Below are positions 1 to 5,675 of a DNA stretch of 5,675 nt, one piece after another. How positions within the stretch are numbered: position 1 is the stretch's first letter; every line of letters starts with the position of its first letter. The stretch lies in the IMG/VR virus record IMGVR_UViG_2695420514_000021. One strand, 5' to 3'. A program made the translations under genes and the position numbers. The notes below the pieces were generated by a model. That model saw only the letters and a program-made list of their open reading frames with translations. It had not been told where the DNA came from and ran no database searches. This DNA comes from a virus (taxonomy: Duplodnaviria > Heunggongvirae > Uroviricota > Caudoviricetes).

Positions 1-756
1 GAAATTATCAGTAAGATTGGTGCCGATGCTGTGGCATTGCCTGAGAATTTCCGCATTCATGATCTGGAAAAATTTAATTTAAATCGCTTCCGTTTCCGTG
101 GTGCGCTTTCCACTGCCAGCATCGATGACTTTACCCGTTATTCTAAAGATCTTGCAGATGAAGGCACCCGCTGCTTTATCGATGCCGATAATATGCGAGC
201 AGTCAGTGTGCTTAACCTGGGTACTATTGATGAACCAGGTCACGCAGATAACACCGCCACTCTCAAACTGAAAAAGACAGCACCGTTCTCTGCCCTGTTG
301 TCTGTTAACGGCGAGCGTAACTCCCAGAAGTCACTGGCAGAATGGATTGAAGACTGGGCCGACTACCTTGTGGGCTTTGATGCTAATGGTGACGCTATTC
401 AGGCAACAAAAGCGGCTGCGGCGGTCCGTAAAATCACGATTGAAGCAAACCAGACCGCTGATTTTGAAGATAATGACTTCAGCGGCAAACGCTCCCTGAT
501 GGAGTCTGTCGAAGCGAAGACCAAAGACATTATGCCAGTGGCATTTGAATTTAAATGCGTTCCGTTTGAAGGTCTGAAAGAACGTCCATTTAAATTACGC
601 CTCAGCATTATCACTGGCGATCGTCCTGTACTGGTTCTGCGCATTATTCAGCTGGAAGCGGTGCAGGAAGAAATGGCTAACGAATTTCGTGATCTGCTTG
701 TTGAGAAATTTAAAGACAGCAAAGTAGAAACCTTTATTGGTACTTTCACCGCCTGA
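1..756 (+). CDS. yfdQ: YfdQ-like prophage protein (DUF2303 family), 5'-truncated by the window edge
   Basis: The open frame runs in-frame from nt 1 ([17 protein letters not shown]...) to TGA at 754-756, so the GTG at 31 is internal, not the start. The translation matches my recollection of CPS-53 YfdQ, and the gene sits directly upstream of yfdR/yfdS-like genes as in K-12. Confidence 0.8.
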
Positions 757-768
757 TTTCATTACTGC

Positions 769-795
769 AAATGCCCCTGCGGGGGCATTTATGGA
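769..795 (+). terminator. Putative rho-independent terminator or attenuator hairpin after the yfdQ-like gene
   Basis: Perfect inverted repeat AATGCCCC (770-777), loop TGCG, GGGGCATT (782-789), followed by TTAT. The U-tract is short, so it may be a partial terminator or processing site within the operon. Confidence 0.45.
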
Positions 796-883
796 AACAT
801 AATTTACTCAATAATCGCCGGATAGTGAGGGCTTCCTTTTACCAGAATTCAGCGCGGTGCAGCGCATATACGTGGAGAACAAA

Positions 884-1420
884 ATGTCATTTATTAAAAC
901 TTTTTCCGGGAAGCATTTTTATTATGACAGGATAAATAAAGACGACATCGTTATTAACGATATCGCGGTTTCCCTTTCAAATATCTGTCGCTTTGCAGGA
1001 CATCTTTCACACTTCTACAGCGTCGCCCAACATGCGGTGCTTTGCAGCCAGCTGGTACCGCAGGAATTTGCTTTTGAAGCGTTAATGCATGATGCAACAG
1101 AAGCATATTGCCAGGACATCCCCGCACCACTGAAACGCCTTCTTCCTGACTATAAACGGATGGAAGAAAAAATAGACGCCGTAATCCGTGAGAAATACGG
1201 GTTACCTCCTGTTATGAGCACGCCAGTGAAATATGCCGATCTCATTATGCTGGCAACCGAACGCCGCGATCTCGGGCTTGATGATGGCTCTTTCTGGCCT
1301 GTACTGGAAGGTATCCCGGCGACAGAGATGTTCAAAGTTATTCCACTGTCACCAGGCCATGCCTACGGGATGTTTATGGAACGTTTTAACGAGTTATCGG
1401 AGTTACGCAAATGCGCATGA
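884..1420 (+). CDS. yfdR: HD-domain phosphohydrolase (5'-deoxynucleotidase YfdR-like), 178 aa
   Basis: ATG at 884 is preceded by GGAGA at 873-877. The translation has a His...His-Asp signature (GHLSH; MHD at codons 68-70, nt 1085-1093) typical of HD phosphohydrolases. Length and sequence match my recollection of CPS-53 YfdR. The in-frame ATG at 857 lacks a good RBS. Confidence 0.88.
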   Translation: MSFIKTFSGKHFYYDRINKDDIVINDIAVSLSNICRFAGHLSHFYSVAQHAVLCSQLVPQEFAFEALMHDATEAYCQDIPAPLKRLLPDYKRMEEKIDAVIREKYGLPPVMSTPVKYADLIMLATERRDLGLDDGSFWPVLEGIPATEMFKVIPLSPGHAYGMFMERFNELSELRKCA

Positions 1421-1773
1421 ATGTTTTCGAAATGGAAGGGTTTCTTCGCGGGAAATGTGTACCGCGAGATCTGAAAGTGAACGAAACAAATGCTGAGTAC
1501 CTGGTACGTAAATTCGATGCGCTTGAAGCTAAATGTACGGCACTGGAAAACAAAATAATACCAGTGTCAGCTGAACTGCCACCAGCAAATGAAAGTGTTC
1601 TGTTATTTGATGCTAACGGAGAAGGCTGGCTAATTGGCTGGCGTTCTCTCTGGTACACCTGGGGACAAAAAGAAACCGGAGAATGGCAGTGGACATTTCA
1701 GGTCGGGGACCTTGAAAACGTCAATATCACTCACTGGGCAGTAATGCCGAAAGCACCGGAGAATAAGAAATGA
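1411..1773 (+). CDS. yfdS: YfdS-like prophage protein (DUF551-type), 120 aa
   Basis: ATG at 1411 with GGAG at 1399-1402. It overlaps the yfdR stop (TGA 1418-1420), indicating translational coupling. A Trp-rich C-terminus (GWLIGWRSLWYTWGQKETGEWQW) is typical of this family. A start at ATG 1417 is an alternative. Confidence 0.8.
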   Translation: MRMNVFEMEGFLRGKCVPRDLKVNETNAEYLVRKFDALEAKCTALENKIIPVSAELPPANESVLLFDANGEGWLIGWRSLWYTWGQKETGEWQWTFQVGDLENVNITHWAVMPKAPENKK

Positions 1774-1973
1774 GCGTGATAAAAACTCATACAGGAATTG
1801 TTATCACCCGAGACGGTCCGCAGGTAAAAAAACTGCACCAGACAAAGCGGATGTGGGTCGTCGGAAAAAACGAGTTTTACCACAAAGAAACCGGACGCCG
1901 CCACTTTGCAGAAAATACGCGCCGCCGACTGCTGATCGACAGCATCAAGCCTATCGAGGTGAAGCATGTTTAA
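1770..1973 (+). CDS. Small hypothetical phage protein, 67 aa, basic
   Basis: ATG at 1770 overlaps the yfdS stop (ATGA at 1770-1773). GGAGA at 1758-1762 gives RBS spacing of about 7 nt. Coding is supported mainly by the coupled arrangement; no family recognised. Confidence 0.55.
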   Translation: MSVIKTHTGIVITRDGPQVKKLHQTKRMWVVGKNEFYHKETGRRHFAENTRRRLLIDSIKPIEVKHV

Positions 1974-2205
1974 ACAGAACGAAAAATCTATCGCTCAAAT
2001 TGCTGAGTATATCCCGCGTGCGTGCCGGGGTATGCAGTTGCAGGAAGCCAAAGCGCGCCTGGAGAAAAAAATTGCGCTCTATATCGATGACGGCTGTGAT
2101 GCTGCCGTTCTTAACGCAGCGTTCGCGCCAGCTCTTAACAGTCATACGCGGGAGTCTTTTTTTTCGCGCATCGCAGCGCAGATCCGTAAAGGAGGCAACC
2201 AGTGA
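1966..2205 (+). CDS. Small hypothetical phage protein, 79 aa
   Basis: ATG at 1966 overlaps the preceding stop (TAA 1971-1973) and is preceded by GAGGTGAAGC. The gene ends in a GTGA overlap with the next gene. No family recognised. Confidence 0.6.
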   Translation: MFKQNEKSIAQIAEYIPRACRGMQLQEAKARLEKKIALYIDDGCDAAVLNAAFAPALNSHTRESFFSRIAAQIRKGGNQ

Positions 2206-2756
2206 GCGAGATTAACTATCAGGCTCTGCGACTGGCGGCAGAAAATGCAACACCAGGCGAATGGTGTGCTGATGACTACCATGGAGTAATTGCCGATGCC
2301 GGACTGAACGCCAATTACTACATAGCATCATGCTCAGGACCAGATAATCGCGCCAATAAACGATTCATAGCCGCCGCCAATCCTGCCACCGTCTTGGCGC
2401 TGCTGGATGAGCTGGAAGCAGCAGAGAAGCGAAACGCTGAATTACAAAGCGAGAATGCATACATCCGCAACCGGTACAAAGAACTGGACCTATTAATCGG
2501 GAAAAACATTCTGGTCATGCAGGCTGCCATTATCGAATGGCAGGCAACTGGCGACGCTAAGAGCGGACTGGCATGGATTTATAACACACTGTTTGGCCCT
2601 GGCGAATTACCGGACGAATCTGAGAAAGATGCTCAGGCCTACTTTAATCGCAAATATGCACCGATTGACGAAAAGCTTATGGCGCTTCACAAGTGGTTTT
2701 GGGAACAAAGTGAAGCCGAGCGCGCCGCCGCCAACATTGGTGTGAAGGGGAAGTGA
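2202..2756 (+). CDS. Ead/Ea22-like family protein, 184 aa
   Basis: GTG start at 2202 with a strong RBS AAAGGAGG at 2188-2195. The N-terminus (MSEINYQALR..AENATPGEW) and the DNRANKRFIAAANPATVLALLDELEAAEKRNAELQ segment resemble Ead/Ea22-like proteins of lambdoid prophages as I recall them. A central segment looks coiled-coil. Confidence 0.7.
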   Translation: MSEINYQALRLAAENATPGEWCADDYHGVIADAGLNANYYIASCSGPDNRANKRFIAAANPATVLALLDELEAAEKRNAELQSENAYIRNRYKELDLLIGKNILVMQAAIIEWQATGDAKSGLAWIYNTLFGPGELPDESEKDAQAYFNRKYAPIDEKLMALHKWFWEQSEAERAAANIGVKGK

Positions 2757-2757
2757 G

Positions 2758-2949
2758 ATGAACGGACAAATCTCAATTGTTCGACCGGGAGCATGTGACG
2801 ATTGCGAGATACGAATGATTATTCGTCTGGCGAGGGGGAAAACAATAACTGCTCTCATTACTCCTGAAAATCTCGCATTAGCATTAACAGGAAAGTCAGA
2901 CCTGCCAGTAGAGCTAAAGCTGCGAAATATTGAGATTAAAGTGAAATAG
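2758..2949 (+). CDS. Small hypothetical phage protein, 63 aa
   Basis: ATG at 2758 lies 1 nt after the upstream stop (TGA 2754-2756), with GAAGGGGAAG just upstream as RBS. No family recognised. Confidence 0.5.
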   Translation: MNGQISIVRPGACDDCEIRMIIRLARGKTITALITPENLALALTGKSDLPVELKLRNIEIKVK

Positions 2950-2951
2950 TT

Positions 2952-3719
2952 ATGAATACTCTTACCAAAGAATGGTTACAGAACACGATTACCAGCATTG
3001 AGTCAGCACGGGATGAAATACCGTTCGGACTCGATGAAGATCAAAACAACATGCTTACCGCATTAAAAATTGCACTGGCATCACTGGCAGCAGTATCAGA
3101 TGAACGAGCAGCCTATGAATTATTTATGGAGAAGCGTTTCGGGGAATCTGTAGATCGTCGCAGAGCAAAAAATGGCGATTGCGAATACATGGCATGGGAT
3201 ATGGCGCTTGGCTGGATTATCTGGTGTCACCGCACCGCCATGCTTCAGGGTAACCAACCTGTAAGCCAAACTTACAAGTTTCCACAAACGCAGTTTGAAG
3301 AGGTTGCTGACCTCTACGAAATGCAATTTGATGACGGACGCACTTGTGCCTTTCATAGTGATGTGCAAAAGGCTGCACAATGGCTTCAGGCATGCGACGG
3401 AAACAGGGTTCAGGAATACGTGAAGTTGGAACGATTGCAGAACGCGCTGTCTGATAACTCTCCAGTAACTCCGGATGGTTGGGTTATGGTTCCGAAGAAA
3501 CTAACCGCTGAGAACGGCGCTAAAGGTGTGCTATCCGGTGAATTTTCAGAATCTACGTTTATAAGCTGCCCGGAATGTTTTGGCGATGATGATTGCGATA
3601 CCTGTGACGGGAGCGGACGTATTGAAATTAAAGTGCCAGTCACGTGGTCGACCATAAAATCTATCTGGGATAAAGGTATCGAGTATTTTGCAGCAAAACC
3701 ATCACAAGAGGTGAAGTGA
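2952..3719 (+). CDS. Hypothetical phage protein, 255 aa, with a C-terminal DnaJ-type zinc-ribbon-like motif
   Basis: Long ORF with ATG at 2952, 2 nt after the upstream stop. The motif CPECFGDDDCDTCDGSG at nt 3567-3617 contains a CxxCxGxG unit plus a second CxxC. The RBS is weak, so the exact start is uncertain. Confidence 0.75.
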   Translation: MNTLTKEWLQNTITSIESARDEIPFGLDEDQNNMLTALKIALASLAAVSDERAAYELFMEKRFGESVDRRRAKNGDCEYMAWDMALGWIIWCHRTAMLQGNQPVSQTYKFPQTQFEEVADLYEMQFDDGRTCAFHSDVQKAAQWLQACDGNRVQEYVKLERLQNALSDNSPVTPDGWVMVPKKLTAENGAKGVLSGEFSESTFISCPECFGDDDCDTCDGSGRIEIKVPVTWSTIKSIWDKGIEYFAAKPSQEVK

Positions 3720-4291
3720 TGAACAACTTAATGATCGACCTTGAGACGATGGGGAAAAATAAGGATGCACCGATCGTTTCCATTGGCGCGGTGTTCTTCA
3801 CTCCAGAAACCGGAGACATCGGACAAGAATTCTATGCGGTTGTCAGCCTAGACAGTGCTATGAAGCAAGGAGCTACACCTGACGGCGATACCATCCTGTG
3901 GTGGTTGAAACAAAGCCCTGAAGCGCGAGCTGCAATCTGTATTGATGATACTTTGTCGATCAGCGATGCTCTCTCAGAACTAAACCATTTCATTAACCGG
4001 CACGCAGACAATACGAAATATTTAAAAGTCTGGGGTAACGGGGCCACCTTCGACAACGTAATTTTACGTGGAGCTTATGAGCGAGCAGGACAAATCTGCC
4101 CGTGGGCGTACTGGAATGACCACGATGTACGCACGATCGTTACGCTTGGGCGTTCCATCGGATTCGACCCCAAAATGGACATGCCTTTCGATGGCGAACG
4201 GCACAACGCCCTGGCTGATGCCCGTCATCAGGCAAAATATGTTTCCGCTATCTGGCAGAAATTAATTCCTGCCACCAGCACAGAATTATGA
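3719..4291 (+). CDS. Prophage 3'-5' exonuclease of the DEDDh (DnaQ-like) superfamily, 190 aa
   Basis: ATG at 3719 (the GTG at 3716 overlaps the upstream TGA), with GAGGTG at 3706-3711 as RBS. The translation shows Exo I (MIDLETMG), Exo II (WGNGATFDNVIL) and Exo III (HNALADARH, HxxxxD) motifs in the expected order. This small exonuclease is a conserved resident next to xis/int in lambdoid prophages; the truncated ypdJ of K-12 is the equivalent remnant, as far as I recall. Confidence 0.85.
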   Translation: MNNLMIDLETMGKNKDAPIVSIGAVFFTPETGDIGQEFYAVVSLDSAMKQGATPDGDTILWWLKQSPEARAAICIDDTLSISDALSELNHFINRHADNTKYLKVWGNGATFDNVILRGAYERAGQICPWAYWNDHDVRTIVTLGRSIGFDPKMDMPFDGERHNALADARHQAKYVSAIWQKLIPATSTEL

Positions 4292-4327
4292 TTTTCCCGG
4301 GTGCAGCCGGTTTTGATGGAGAAAATT

Positions 4328-4597
4328 ATGAACACCTTGTTTTTACTGATGGCTGAATTCAATACCCCAAACATTGAACTCTCAGCAGTTAGTCAAAAAT
4401 ACTTTGGTATGAGTCCAGCCACAGCAGAAGCAAAAGCAAACGCTTGTAAGTTGCCTGTACCTACATATCGCATCGGTACATCACAAAAAGCAAAACGCTG
4501 CATCAACATTCAGGATCTTGCGGAATATATTGACAAAAGACGGGAAGAAGGGCGAGCTGAGTGGGAAAAAGTCAGAACGGAAAAAAAATATAACTAA
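4328..4597 (+). CDS. Excisionase-like DNA-binding protein (PrtN/AlpA-type), 89 aa
   Basis: ATG at 4328 with GGAG at 4317-4320. The N-terminus MNTLFLLMAEF and the ...SQKAKRCINIQDLAEYIDKRREEG segment resemble the PrtN family as I recall it. It is the last gene of the + strand operon, the canonical xis position. The in-frame ATG at 4301 lacks an RBS. Confidence 0.75.
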   Translation: MNTLFLLMAEFNTPNIELSAVSQKYFGMSPATAEAKANACKLPVPTYRIGTSQKAKRCINIQDLAEYIDKRREEGRAEWEKVRTEKKYN

Positions 4598-4610
4598 ACT
4601 AAAACTATGG

Positions 4611-4642
4611 ATAACCCGTATATGTACGGGTTATTTTTCTTT
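4611..4642. terminator. Rho-independent terminator between convergent genes, probably bidirectional
   Basis: Stem AACCCGTA (4613-4620), loop TATG, TACGGGTT (4625-4632), followed on the + strand by ATTTTTCTTTAT. On the - strand the T-tract is poorer and starts a few nt after the stem. The TAA stop of the - strand gene (4631-4633) lies inside the stem. Confidence 0.7.
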
Positions 4643-5179
4643 ATCACTATCTTTTCTTGATTTGAACAATCCACTAACAACGAAACCAACCAAACCAACA
4701 ATACTAATTGTACTTGTACCTAGTAATGCAACGATCGCTTCAACTGGAGGCTTTCCTTCATGTGCAATAAGAAACGATGTAAACATTGCGACAACGAATA
4801 AGCACCAACACGACATAAACCAAACCGTGAATGATGCCATTTTTGTCCGGAGCTCATTGTCTATTTCTTTACCAGTTGCGTCAGCTATCTTATCCCGTAC
4901 TTGTGATTTGAGCATATCAAGCTGAGCTTGAAGACTGTCCATTCTGTTCTGCTGCATAAACTCATGCAATGCACCAGTATTAGAACCAAACTCTTCTTCC
5001 TCCAGAATAGCCTTATTTTCTGAAGAAGAATCATCATCGCGTTCATGATTAGACGGCTCAAATGCGGATTCAAAAGCCTGCTCTTGACTGTCAGTAGAGT
5101 TTAAGGATGCTTCAGAGCGACCATTTTCAACACCTGCGGCCGCTCCGATCAGTTTATAGATATCTGAATTATGAGACAT
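4631..5179 (-). CDS. Hypothetical membrane protein, 182 aa: acidic Ser/Glu/Asp-rich N-terminal domain plus two predicted C-terminal TM helices; candidate toxin/effector partner of the upstream Panacea-like gene
   Basis: ATG at 5179-5177 (- strand) preceded by AGGGATGAC, stop TAA at 4633-4631. The N-terminal roughly 110 aa are hydrophilic and acidic (ERDDDSSSENKAILEEEEFG) with a likely helical stretch (MDSLQAQLDMLKSQVRDKIADATG). Two hydrophobic stretches follow (FTVWFMSCWCLFVVAMFTSFLIA and AIVALLGTSTISIVGLVGFVVSGLF, about nt 4664-4831). No family recognised. Confidence 0.72.
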   Translation of the reverse strand: MSHNSDIYKLIGAAAGVENGRSEASLNSTDSQEQAFESAFEPSNHERDDDSSSENKAILEEEEFGSNTGALHEFMQQNRMDSLQAQLDMLKSQVRDKIADATGKEIDNELRTKMASFTVWFMSCWCLFVVAMFTSFLIAHEGKPPVEAIVALLGTSTISIVGLVGFVVSGLFKSRKDSDKEK

Positions 5180-5201
5180 GTCATCCCTGAATATTACTTT
5201 T

Positions 5202-5675
5202 TCAGAGGCCCTGACATTGCTGTCGGTTATTCAATAAATCATGATAATAAGCCTTGATCGCATCATTTGAGATGATCGACGAGCCAATACCATTATAAGC
5301 TTGTGACCAAGGCGTACCTGGCATATGAGTTAGAGTTGATAACTCAATTCCATTTTTCGAGCCGTAAAACTTATAAACAGCCCCGATAATGCTCTCTGCT
5401 TGCGGATCCATAGTAACGATGCCACCAAAAGGAGCTACTGCTACATTCGTAACAGGTTTATTCCCATAGTCTTTGAAAGCATCGTACATTCCAGGAATAA
5501 CTGGACCGTACTTCCACGCGGAGACACATTCATTGAGCAAAGGCTTACCTGTTAATGCTAAATAGTAACCATGGGCAATATAAGTAAGCTTCTGCAGTTG
5601 CATGTGGGTCAGAGGATTATGATGTTGGTTTCCCAACGTTATGAATTTATTGGCTATTTGTACCGGACTGTACAT
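5202..5675 (-). CDS. Panacea-domain (DUF4065; COG3600/GepA, SocA-like) protein, 157 aa; putative antitoxin or adaptor
   Basis: The ATG is the last three nt of the window (5675-5673, - strand), stop TGA at 5204-5202. The N-terminus MYSPVQIANKFI and the core LQKLTYIAHGYYLALTGKPLLNECVSAWKYGPVIPGMYDAFKDYG (about nt 5484-5600) match the Panacea/DUF4065 pattern as I recall it. The ORF could extend beyond the window edge, since no upstream stop or RBS is visible. Confidence 0.75.
   Translation of the reverse strand: MYSPVQIANKFITLGNQHHNPLTHMQLQKLTYIAHGYYLALTGKPLLNECVSAWKYGPVIPGMYDAFKDYGNKPVTNVAVAPFGGIVTMDPQAESIIGAVYKFYGSKNGIELSTLTHMPGTPWSQAYNGIGSSIISNDAIKAYYHDLLNNRQQCQGL

Follow-up and report, generated by a model that had tools for sequence, protein, structure and literature searches.

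A PrtN-family gene at the end of a lambdoid prophage early-left operon encodes a predicted RdfN-type excisionase of dusA-integrating elements

The window (the whole stretch of DNA analysed here, 5,675 nt) is 97–98% identical over most of its length to E. coli lambdoid prophages and phages, and its features are collected in Table 1. Positions 4292-4642 hold a single convincing gene, here called rdfN-like, which begins with the ATG at 4328 and ends with the TAA at 4595-4597. Two longer frames were considered for it and set aside, one from a GTG at 4301 (98 aa, given in the mechanical ORF list) and one from an ATG at 4316 (93 aa, annotated in the 1720a-02 record), as the position of the Shine-Dalgarno sequence and the conserved MNT start argue against both. 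Homologues of the rdfN-like protein all begin with MNT[LM]FLLMA.

The rdfN-like gene closes a plus-strand run of genes that starts at base 31 and corresponds to the early-left operon of a lambdoid prophage, comprising yfdQ/DUF2303, the 5'-deoxynucleotidase gene yfdR, DUF551/Eae and Ead/Ea22-like genes and a 3'-5' exonuclease gene (3716-4291), from which it is separated by 36 nt. A matching gene order was found 3' of a cI-like repressor gene in GF4, 1720a-02 and PhiR47_1. One member of the run, a 255-aa ORF (window 2952-3719), matched PHROG 60 (unknown function) and no Pfam family, and has a Cys-rich C-terminal stretch, CPECFGDDDCDTCDGSG; it sits where the early-left operons of most related prophages differ, which probably accounts for the gaps in query coverage. 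At its 3' side, the rdfN-like gene is separated from the convergent panT by a hairpin terminator. In a promoter scan, sigma-70-like sites were no commoner than in shuffled sequence and none was found 5' of the rdfN-like gene, so that a dedicated xis promoter is not proposed. Judging from the gene packing, the 36-nt gap and the lack of a promoter-like site, the gene is probably transcribed from the early-left operon.

Table 1 Features of the 5,675-nt window.
Feature	Coordinates	Strand	Basis or remark
Early-left operon, lambdoid prophage	31..4291	+	ORFs abut or overlap; Pfam and PHROG; order as in relatives
Shine-Dalgarno GGAG	4318..4321	+	Read from sequence; 6 nt 5' of ATG 4328
rdfN-like gene (89 aa, PrtN-family, predicted RDF/excisionase)	4328..4597	+	Pfam, PHROG, AF2 model, dusA linkage
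A8 run in last codons of rdfN-like gene	4581..4588	+	Sequence
Hairpin terminator, overlaps panT stop codon	4609..4636	both	Plus strand 12-pair stem and T run; minus strand 10-pair stem
panT (182-aa toxin)	4631..5179	-	PHROG 13343, E 1.2e-112; annotated PanT in PhiR47_1
panA (157-aa Panacea-domain antitoxin)	5202..5675	-	PF13274, E 5.9e-18; start codon is the window's last three bases

The 89-aa protein belongs to Pfam family PF11112 (PyocinActivator/PrtN), which it matched with 82.3 bits (E 2.8e-23; profile positions 1-73 of 74) against a curated gathering threshold of 24.2 bits, and it also matched PHROG 1300, annotated as ‘excisionase’ (E 7.5e-40). PF11112 was present in all of the database homologues with a precomputed domain (36/36), and the RefSeq annotation reads ‘pyocin activator PrtN family protein’. 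Searches of Pfam and NCBIfam gave no sequence match to AlpA or HTH_17 (PF05930, PF12728) or to other excisionase models, and NCBIfam held no meaningful model for the protein, its TraR zinc-finger match of 15 bits lying far under the cut-off. BLASTP against K-12 TorI found no similarity (best E 0.066 over 6 residues). The preliminary description had called the protein a PrtN/AlpA-type excisionase different from TorI, and had named a lack of similarity to PrtN, AlpA or excisionase families as a finding that would refute this. Such similarity was found with both PF11112 and PHROG 1300, and the PrtN affiliation and the difference from TorI were confirmed, whereas the AlpA type found no support at the sequence level. 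The first ~80 residues are conserved as far as Vibrio and Gilliamella, and P0027, a 76-aa PrtN-family protein of V. cholerae, is 61% identical over 85% of the query. Within E. coli, five alleles were compared, and the frame was intact in all of them (5/5; protein identity 87-98%).

Since a sequence search against all PDB chains returned none at E <= 10, only the comparison of folds was informative for structure. The AlphaFold2 model (18 homologues; pLDDT 88.5, pTM 0.74) consists of short helices and strands that form a winged-helix-like core and of a long C-terminal helix (residues 61-88). It superposes on solved RDFs, and its top structural matches in the PDB include P2 Cox (4lhf), which was the best, and other excisionases. 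Identity in the structural alignments with P2 Cox, RdfS (8dgl), an AlpA-family protein (8c3t), Pukovnik Xis (4j2n) and Tn916 Xis (1y6u) was only 10-24%, and no sequence-level family match links these Cox, RdfS, AlpA and Xis structures to the rdfN-like protein. TorI and lambda Xis were absent among the listed top matches.

The 5,675-nt window contains no integrase-like ORF, and the position of the integrase was read from its relatives. In GF4, the same two convergent genes come after the rdfN-like gene; ~300 bp on lies a 105-bp dusA fragment that lacks the C-terminus, and beyond it the chromosomal yjbLM-zur-lexA region. The other end of this prophage, ~33 kb away, carries a 365-aa tyrosine integrase gene that is divergent beside an intact dusA and on the same strand as the rdfN-like gene. 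Alignment of the GF4 junctions showed that attL and attR have an identical core of 37 bp within the 5' coding region of dusA, and that the prophage provides a look-alike replacement of the dusA 5' end. Similarly, in O157:H7 ECP19-598 a 365-aa integrase gene lies beside an intact dusA at the opposite end, ~10 kb away, again on the strand of the rdfN-like gene. In O157:H7 (L021:3405-15484), this dusA prophage persists as a degraded version of ~12 kb, in which the integrase and the PrtN-family gene are intact, IS1203 has inserted and three DUF1076 genes are present. By analogy, the window's own copy is predicted to be flanked by a 5' remnant of dusA that includes the core GGTGCAACGCTAAACCGACCACTCCAGTGAACGTCAG and has RFSVAPMLD at its end.

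The two genes also lie at opposite ends of deposited records (prophage coordinates): the 1720a-02 record has int at 194-1291 and the xis region at 45572-45856, and the PhiR47_1 record has panA at 308-781 and int at 41690-42787. Together with phiSTEC1575-Stx2k, which matches the window up to the end of PanA, these two share the xis region with the window, and all three were deposited as phage genomes. The gene adjoining int was considered as a second excisionase gene and rejected, as it is DinI-like. The circular phage order is xis, panT/panA cargo, attP and int, all on one strand save the cargo. Because attP sits between xis and int, integration puts the two at opposite ends of the prophage, and the window is left without an integrase. 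In P2, cox adjoins int, unlike the att-separated order of xis and int here. Both GF4 att arms carry tandem AGGYTCCC repeats with a spacing of 11-12 bp (L001:13730-13748 and L007:2522-2541), found nowhere else in those loci, and ESBL15 keeps one such repeat. These repeats are candidate arm-type binding sites for Int or the RDF.

The linkage to dusA was then followed across strains and genera. Five E. coli contexts were picked over the identity range of the gene (GF4, ESBL15, O157:H7 ECP19-598, RM9088 and 30EVA1), and in each of them (5/5) the rdfN-like gene is the last plus-strand gene of the prophage and is followed by a convergent two-gene cassette and then by a dusA 5' remnant. A cross-species scan with one genome per species yielded ten loci, from Kosakonia, Phytobacter, Pectobacterium, Symbiopectobacterium, two Gilliamella, an Escherichia sp., two Vibrio and a Ketobacteraceae MAG. 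Nine of these ten, and the V. cholerae locus L020 (10/11 together), have dusA or a remnant that ends in RFS[IV]APMLD no more than ~2 kb from the homologue, and at the remaining species locus a dusA-type integrase gene adjoins the homologue. Overall, the rdfN homologue lies beside dusA or a dusA-type integrase gene in 16/16 contexts across genera.

The orientation of the gene differs between these groups (L013:10001-12446, L019:10001-12547, L017:8049-10216, L018:6013-8145 and L020:8078-10231). It is directed toward attR in the enterobacterial and Gilliamella prophages, lies ~2 kb inside attR and is directed inward in the Vibrio islands, and is convergent with int, directly beside an intact dusA, in Pectobacterium and the Ketobacteraceae MAG. 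The element that encodes P0027 carries an mpsA-like PF12835 gene and is integrated beside zur/dusA in V. cholerae. A V. cholerae dusA island with the 76-aa homologue also has genes for an OLD-family ATPase/TOPRIM protein and, after it, a UvrD-like helicase (L020:11266-14827), a pair that may be called Gabija-like on domain content alone, with an mpsA-like PF12835 gene further along. The rdfN-like gene is common, being present in 741 of 5426 complete E. coli genomes (~14%, O157:H7 remnants included), and a full-length int was found in 728 of the 5426, the two figures being separate counts.

Between the RDF gene and attR, the examined E. coli contexts always carry a convergent two-gene cassette, the contents of which vary by strain (slot at window 4598-5675; L009:10610-11700; L022:6274-7490; L023:6262-7550). 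In the window these are panT and panA. PanA is identical to GF4 WP_000287252.1 over its whole length (157/157 residues), and this protein is an E. coli PanA that was validated experimentally (Kurata et al. 2022, PMC8832971). PanT and the GF4 copy share 178/182 residues (179/183 positions if the stop codon is counted). As judged from these matches, the convergent pair is a PanA/PanT type II toxin-antitoxin system, PanA being identical to the validated protein and PanT having been compared with the GF4 copy only. The cognate E. coli PanT (WP_000019185.1) was shown to depolarise the membrane and make it permeable (Kurata et al. 2022, PMC8832971), and the two C-terminal hydrophobic segments of the window's PanT (residues 114-139 and 148-172) would fit such a membrane-pore toxin.

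In other strains the slot holds a YafO-family toxin gene with a partner of ~180 aa, or a pair of 56 aa and 177 aa of unknown function. PADLOC assigned none of PanT, PanA and the ESBL15 alternative cargo proteins to a defence-system model. The slot looks like a hotspot for toxin-antitoxin or defence cargo at the prophage end, and panT is such cargo, outside the recombination module. DNA homology to prophages with other cargo ends at ~4578, just 5' of the A8 run in the last codons of the rdfN-like gene, and the C-terminal tails vary by allele (…EKKYN, …EKKI, …EKQKYN and …KQKGKEHH). The recombination that exchanged the cargo seems to have had its junction within the 3' end of the rdfN-like gene. 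Across this end, the GC content drops from ~0.48 to ~0.40.

The K-12 element CPS-53 (KplE1) served as a further point of comparison. Its torI is the last gene before attR, its intS lies on the same strand at attL beside argW, and both elements share the early-left genes yfdP-yfdQ-yfdR upstream of the RDF gene. CPS-53 differs in its target, which is argW and not dusA, and in having no cargo between torI and attR. BLASTP found no similarity between the dusA-type integrase and IntS, which have only a generic catalytic-domain family in common. We considered whether the module was a diverged version of that of CPS-53 and rejected this after the negative BLASTP comparisons with TorI and IntS. With unrelated RDFs and integrases that share only the catalytic-domain family, int, att and xis have been exchanged together as a set relative to CPS-53, and the upstream early-left genes remained homologous.

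These comparisons bear on several statements of the preliminary description. It had placed the gene at the xis position, which is the slot held by torI in CPS-53, and it had noted that a terminator and a convergent foreign module follow and that the window lacks an integrase gene, all of which we found. Its expectation of int as the following gene on that strand did not hold; it reflects the layout of lambda, which is inapplicable to this phage group, and int lies at the opposite prophage end in GF4 and O157:H7, and likewise in CPS-53. Of the two explanations offered for the missing gene, a position of int beyond the cargo agrees with the circular phage order in PhiR47_1, 1720a-02, GF4 and O157:H7 but not with the integrated state, in which int is at the opposite end, and displacement of int by the foreign module is contradicted by the intact int at the other end of the relatives. 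An integrase located elsewhere with its own adjacent excisionase, which had been named as evidence against the reading, was not what we found, the neighbour of int being the DinI-like gene.

Taken together, these results make it very probable that the 89-aa protein is the RdfN-type (PrtN-family) RDF of a lambdoid prophage with the 5' end of dusA as its integration site. The dusA location of the window's own copy we infer from its 97-98% identical relatives, and RDF activity and DNA binding at the arms are likewise what we would expect of the protein. Upon induction, early-left transcription would run through the exonuclease gene into the rdfN-like gene and stop at the hairpin. The small winged-helix protein would bind phage arm DNA near the attachment site and tip the dusA-specific tyrosine integrase toward excision between attL and attR, the integrase itself having a promoter of its own at the far end of the prophage, adjacent to the restored dusA; in the standard mode of RDFs, the arm DNA would be bound and bent so that the integrase assembles an excisive complex. 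The PanA/PanT pair is exchangeable cargo between the RDF gene and attR.

An alternative explanation is that the protein is mainly a PrtN-like transcription activator of late or cargo genes, acting at a P-box-like site as PrtN does for the pyocin genes, and that excision is directed by another factor. PF11112 takes its name from a transcription activator, P2 Cox, which ranked first in the structural comparison, acts in both excision and transcription regulation, and the role of prtN homologues in dusA islands was left open by Farrugia 2015 (PMC4482086). However, the rdfN-like gene holds the att-proximal place and tracks dusA and the dusA-type integrase over element types as unrelated as lambdoid prophages, SGI1-like islands and small islands, no other excisionase candidate was found beside int, where the neighbour is DinI-like, and Vibrio RdfN is the sole RDF needed with Int (PMC8409611), which together render a mainly activating role decidedly unlikely. 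It is also unlikely that the protein has two jobs like PrtN, P2 Cox and TorI, combining excision with transcription regulation (e.g. of the integrase promoter across att), or that its expression is modulated by transcription of the convergent toxin-antitoxin cassette; were the latter true, prophage excision would be coupled to toxin-antitoxin or defence cargo.

That the recombination module is a mosaic, as the preliminary description had suggested, with a PrtN-type xis recombined in beside an unrelated or lost integrase that was displaced by the foreign module, is very improbable. An intact int was found at the other end in GF4, O157:H7, PhiR47_1 and 1720a-02, the three records with the same xis region were deposited as phage genomes, the separate E. 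coli genome counts given above are close for xis and full-length int, and the PrtN-type gene tracks dusA across genera. Modules have recombined, since yfdQ and yfdR go with TorI in K-12 but with the PrtN-type gene in the window, and the cargo 3' of xis varies between strains, but int, att and xis change together. For the gene to be a decaying remnant without current function, as might be supposed from the many copies in defective prophages, seems extremely improbable. The 12-kb O157:H7 element has undergone heavy deletion and contains an IS, and the C-terminal tail varies around the A8 run; against this stand the intact frames of the E. coli alleles, the conservation of the N-terminal ~80 residues to Vibrio and Gilliamella and the occurrence of the gene in records deposited as phage genomes.

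The preferred reading, an RdfN-type RDF, has consequences mainly for annotation. The PrtN label in RefSeq hides a likely excisionase role in dusA-integrating lambdoid prophages, and in phages with attP between xis and int the absence of an integrase gene beside the excisionase gene is no anomaly. As to how rdfN comes to be expressed in dusA elements of the prophage type, the locus suggests a plausible answer, namely that the gene is the last of the early-left operon. Beyond correct annotation the finding is of little importance, and the convergent PanA/PanT pair is likewise a known kind of system.

The target site and the protein family have both been described before. Stx prophages have been reported to insert at dusA. 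Integrases associated with dusA were defined by Farrugia 2015 (PMC4482086), who recorded a prtN homologue in 60 out of a set of 94 dusA islands, roughly half of the islands being prophages. PrtN of Pseudomonas aeruginosa, a transcription activator of pyocin genes (cited in PMC4482086), shares the Pfam family PF11112 with the rdfN-like protein, and differs in that it is known as an activator and not as an RDF and in that its context has neither an integrase gene nor an att site. Closer to the present case, Rivard 2021 (PMC8409611) gave the name RdfN to a 76-aa PrtN-domain protein of Vibrio dusA islands, the deletion of which abolishes excision and the expression of which in trans restores it. 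A mini-element at E. coli dusA needed no more than Int and RdfN for its excision, and RdfN was considered most likely to be the RDF of all dusA-specific elements (PMC8409611).

Similar to RdfN of IMEVchUSA3 from V. cholerae, the rdfN-like gene encodes a small PF11112 protein and sits close to attR, in an element that occupies the dusA 5' end and has its integrase gene at the opposite end, next to the restored dusA. Homology between the two is drawn through P0027, which matches the tested IMEVchUSA3 protein in species, length and element type only. The rdfN-like protein is longer than Vibrio RdfN, at 89 aa and with a longer basic C-terminal helix, and its host element is a lambdoid prophage, whereas that of Vibrio RdfN is an IncC-mobilisable island. 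As the final gene of the early-left operon, the rdfN-like gene faces attR, whereas the Vibrio gene faces into its element, and expression of the rdfN-like gene probably follows prophage induction, in contrast to the AcaCD-dependent promoter of Vibrio RdfN. With these differences, the rdfN-like gene is of an already described type, the RdfN-type RDF of dusA-specific elements.
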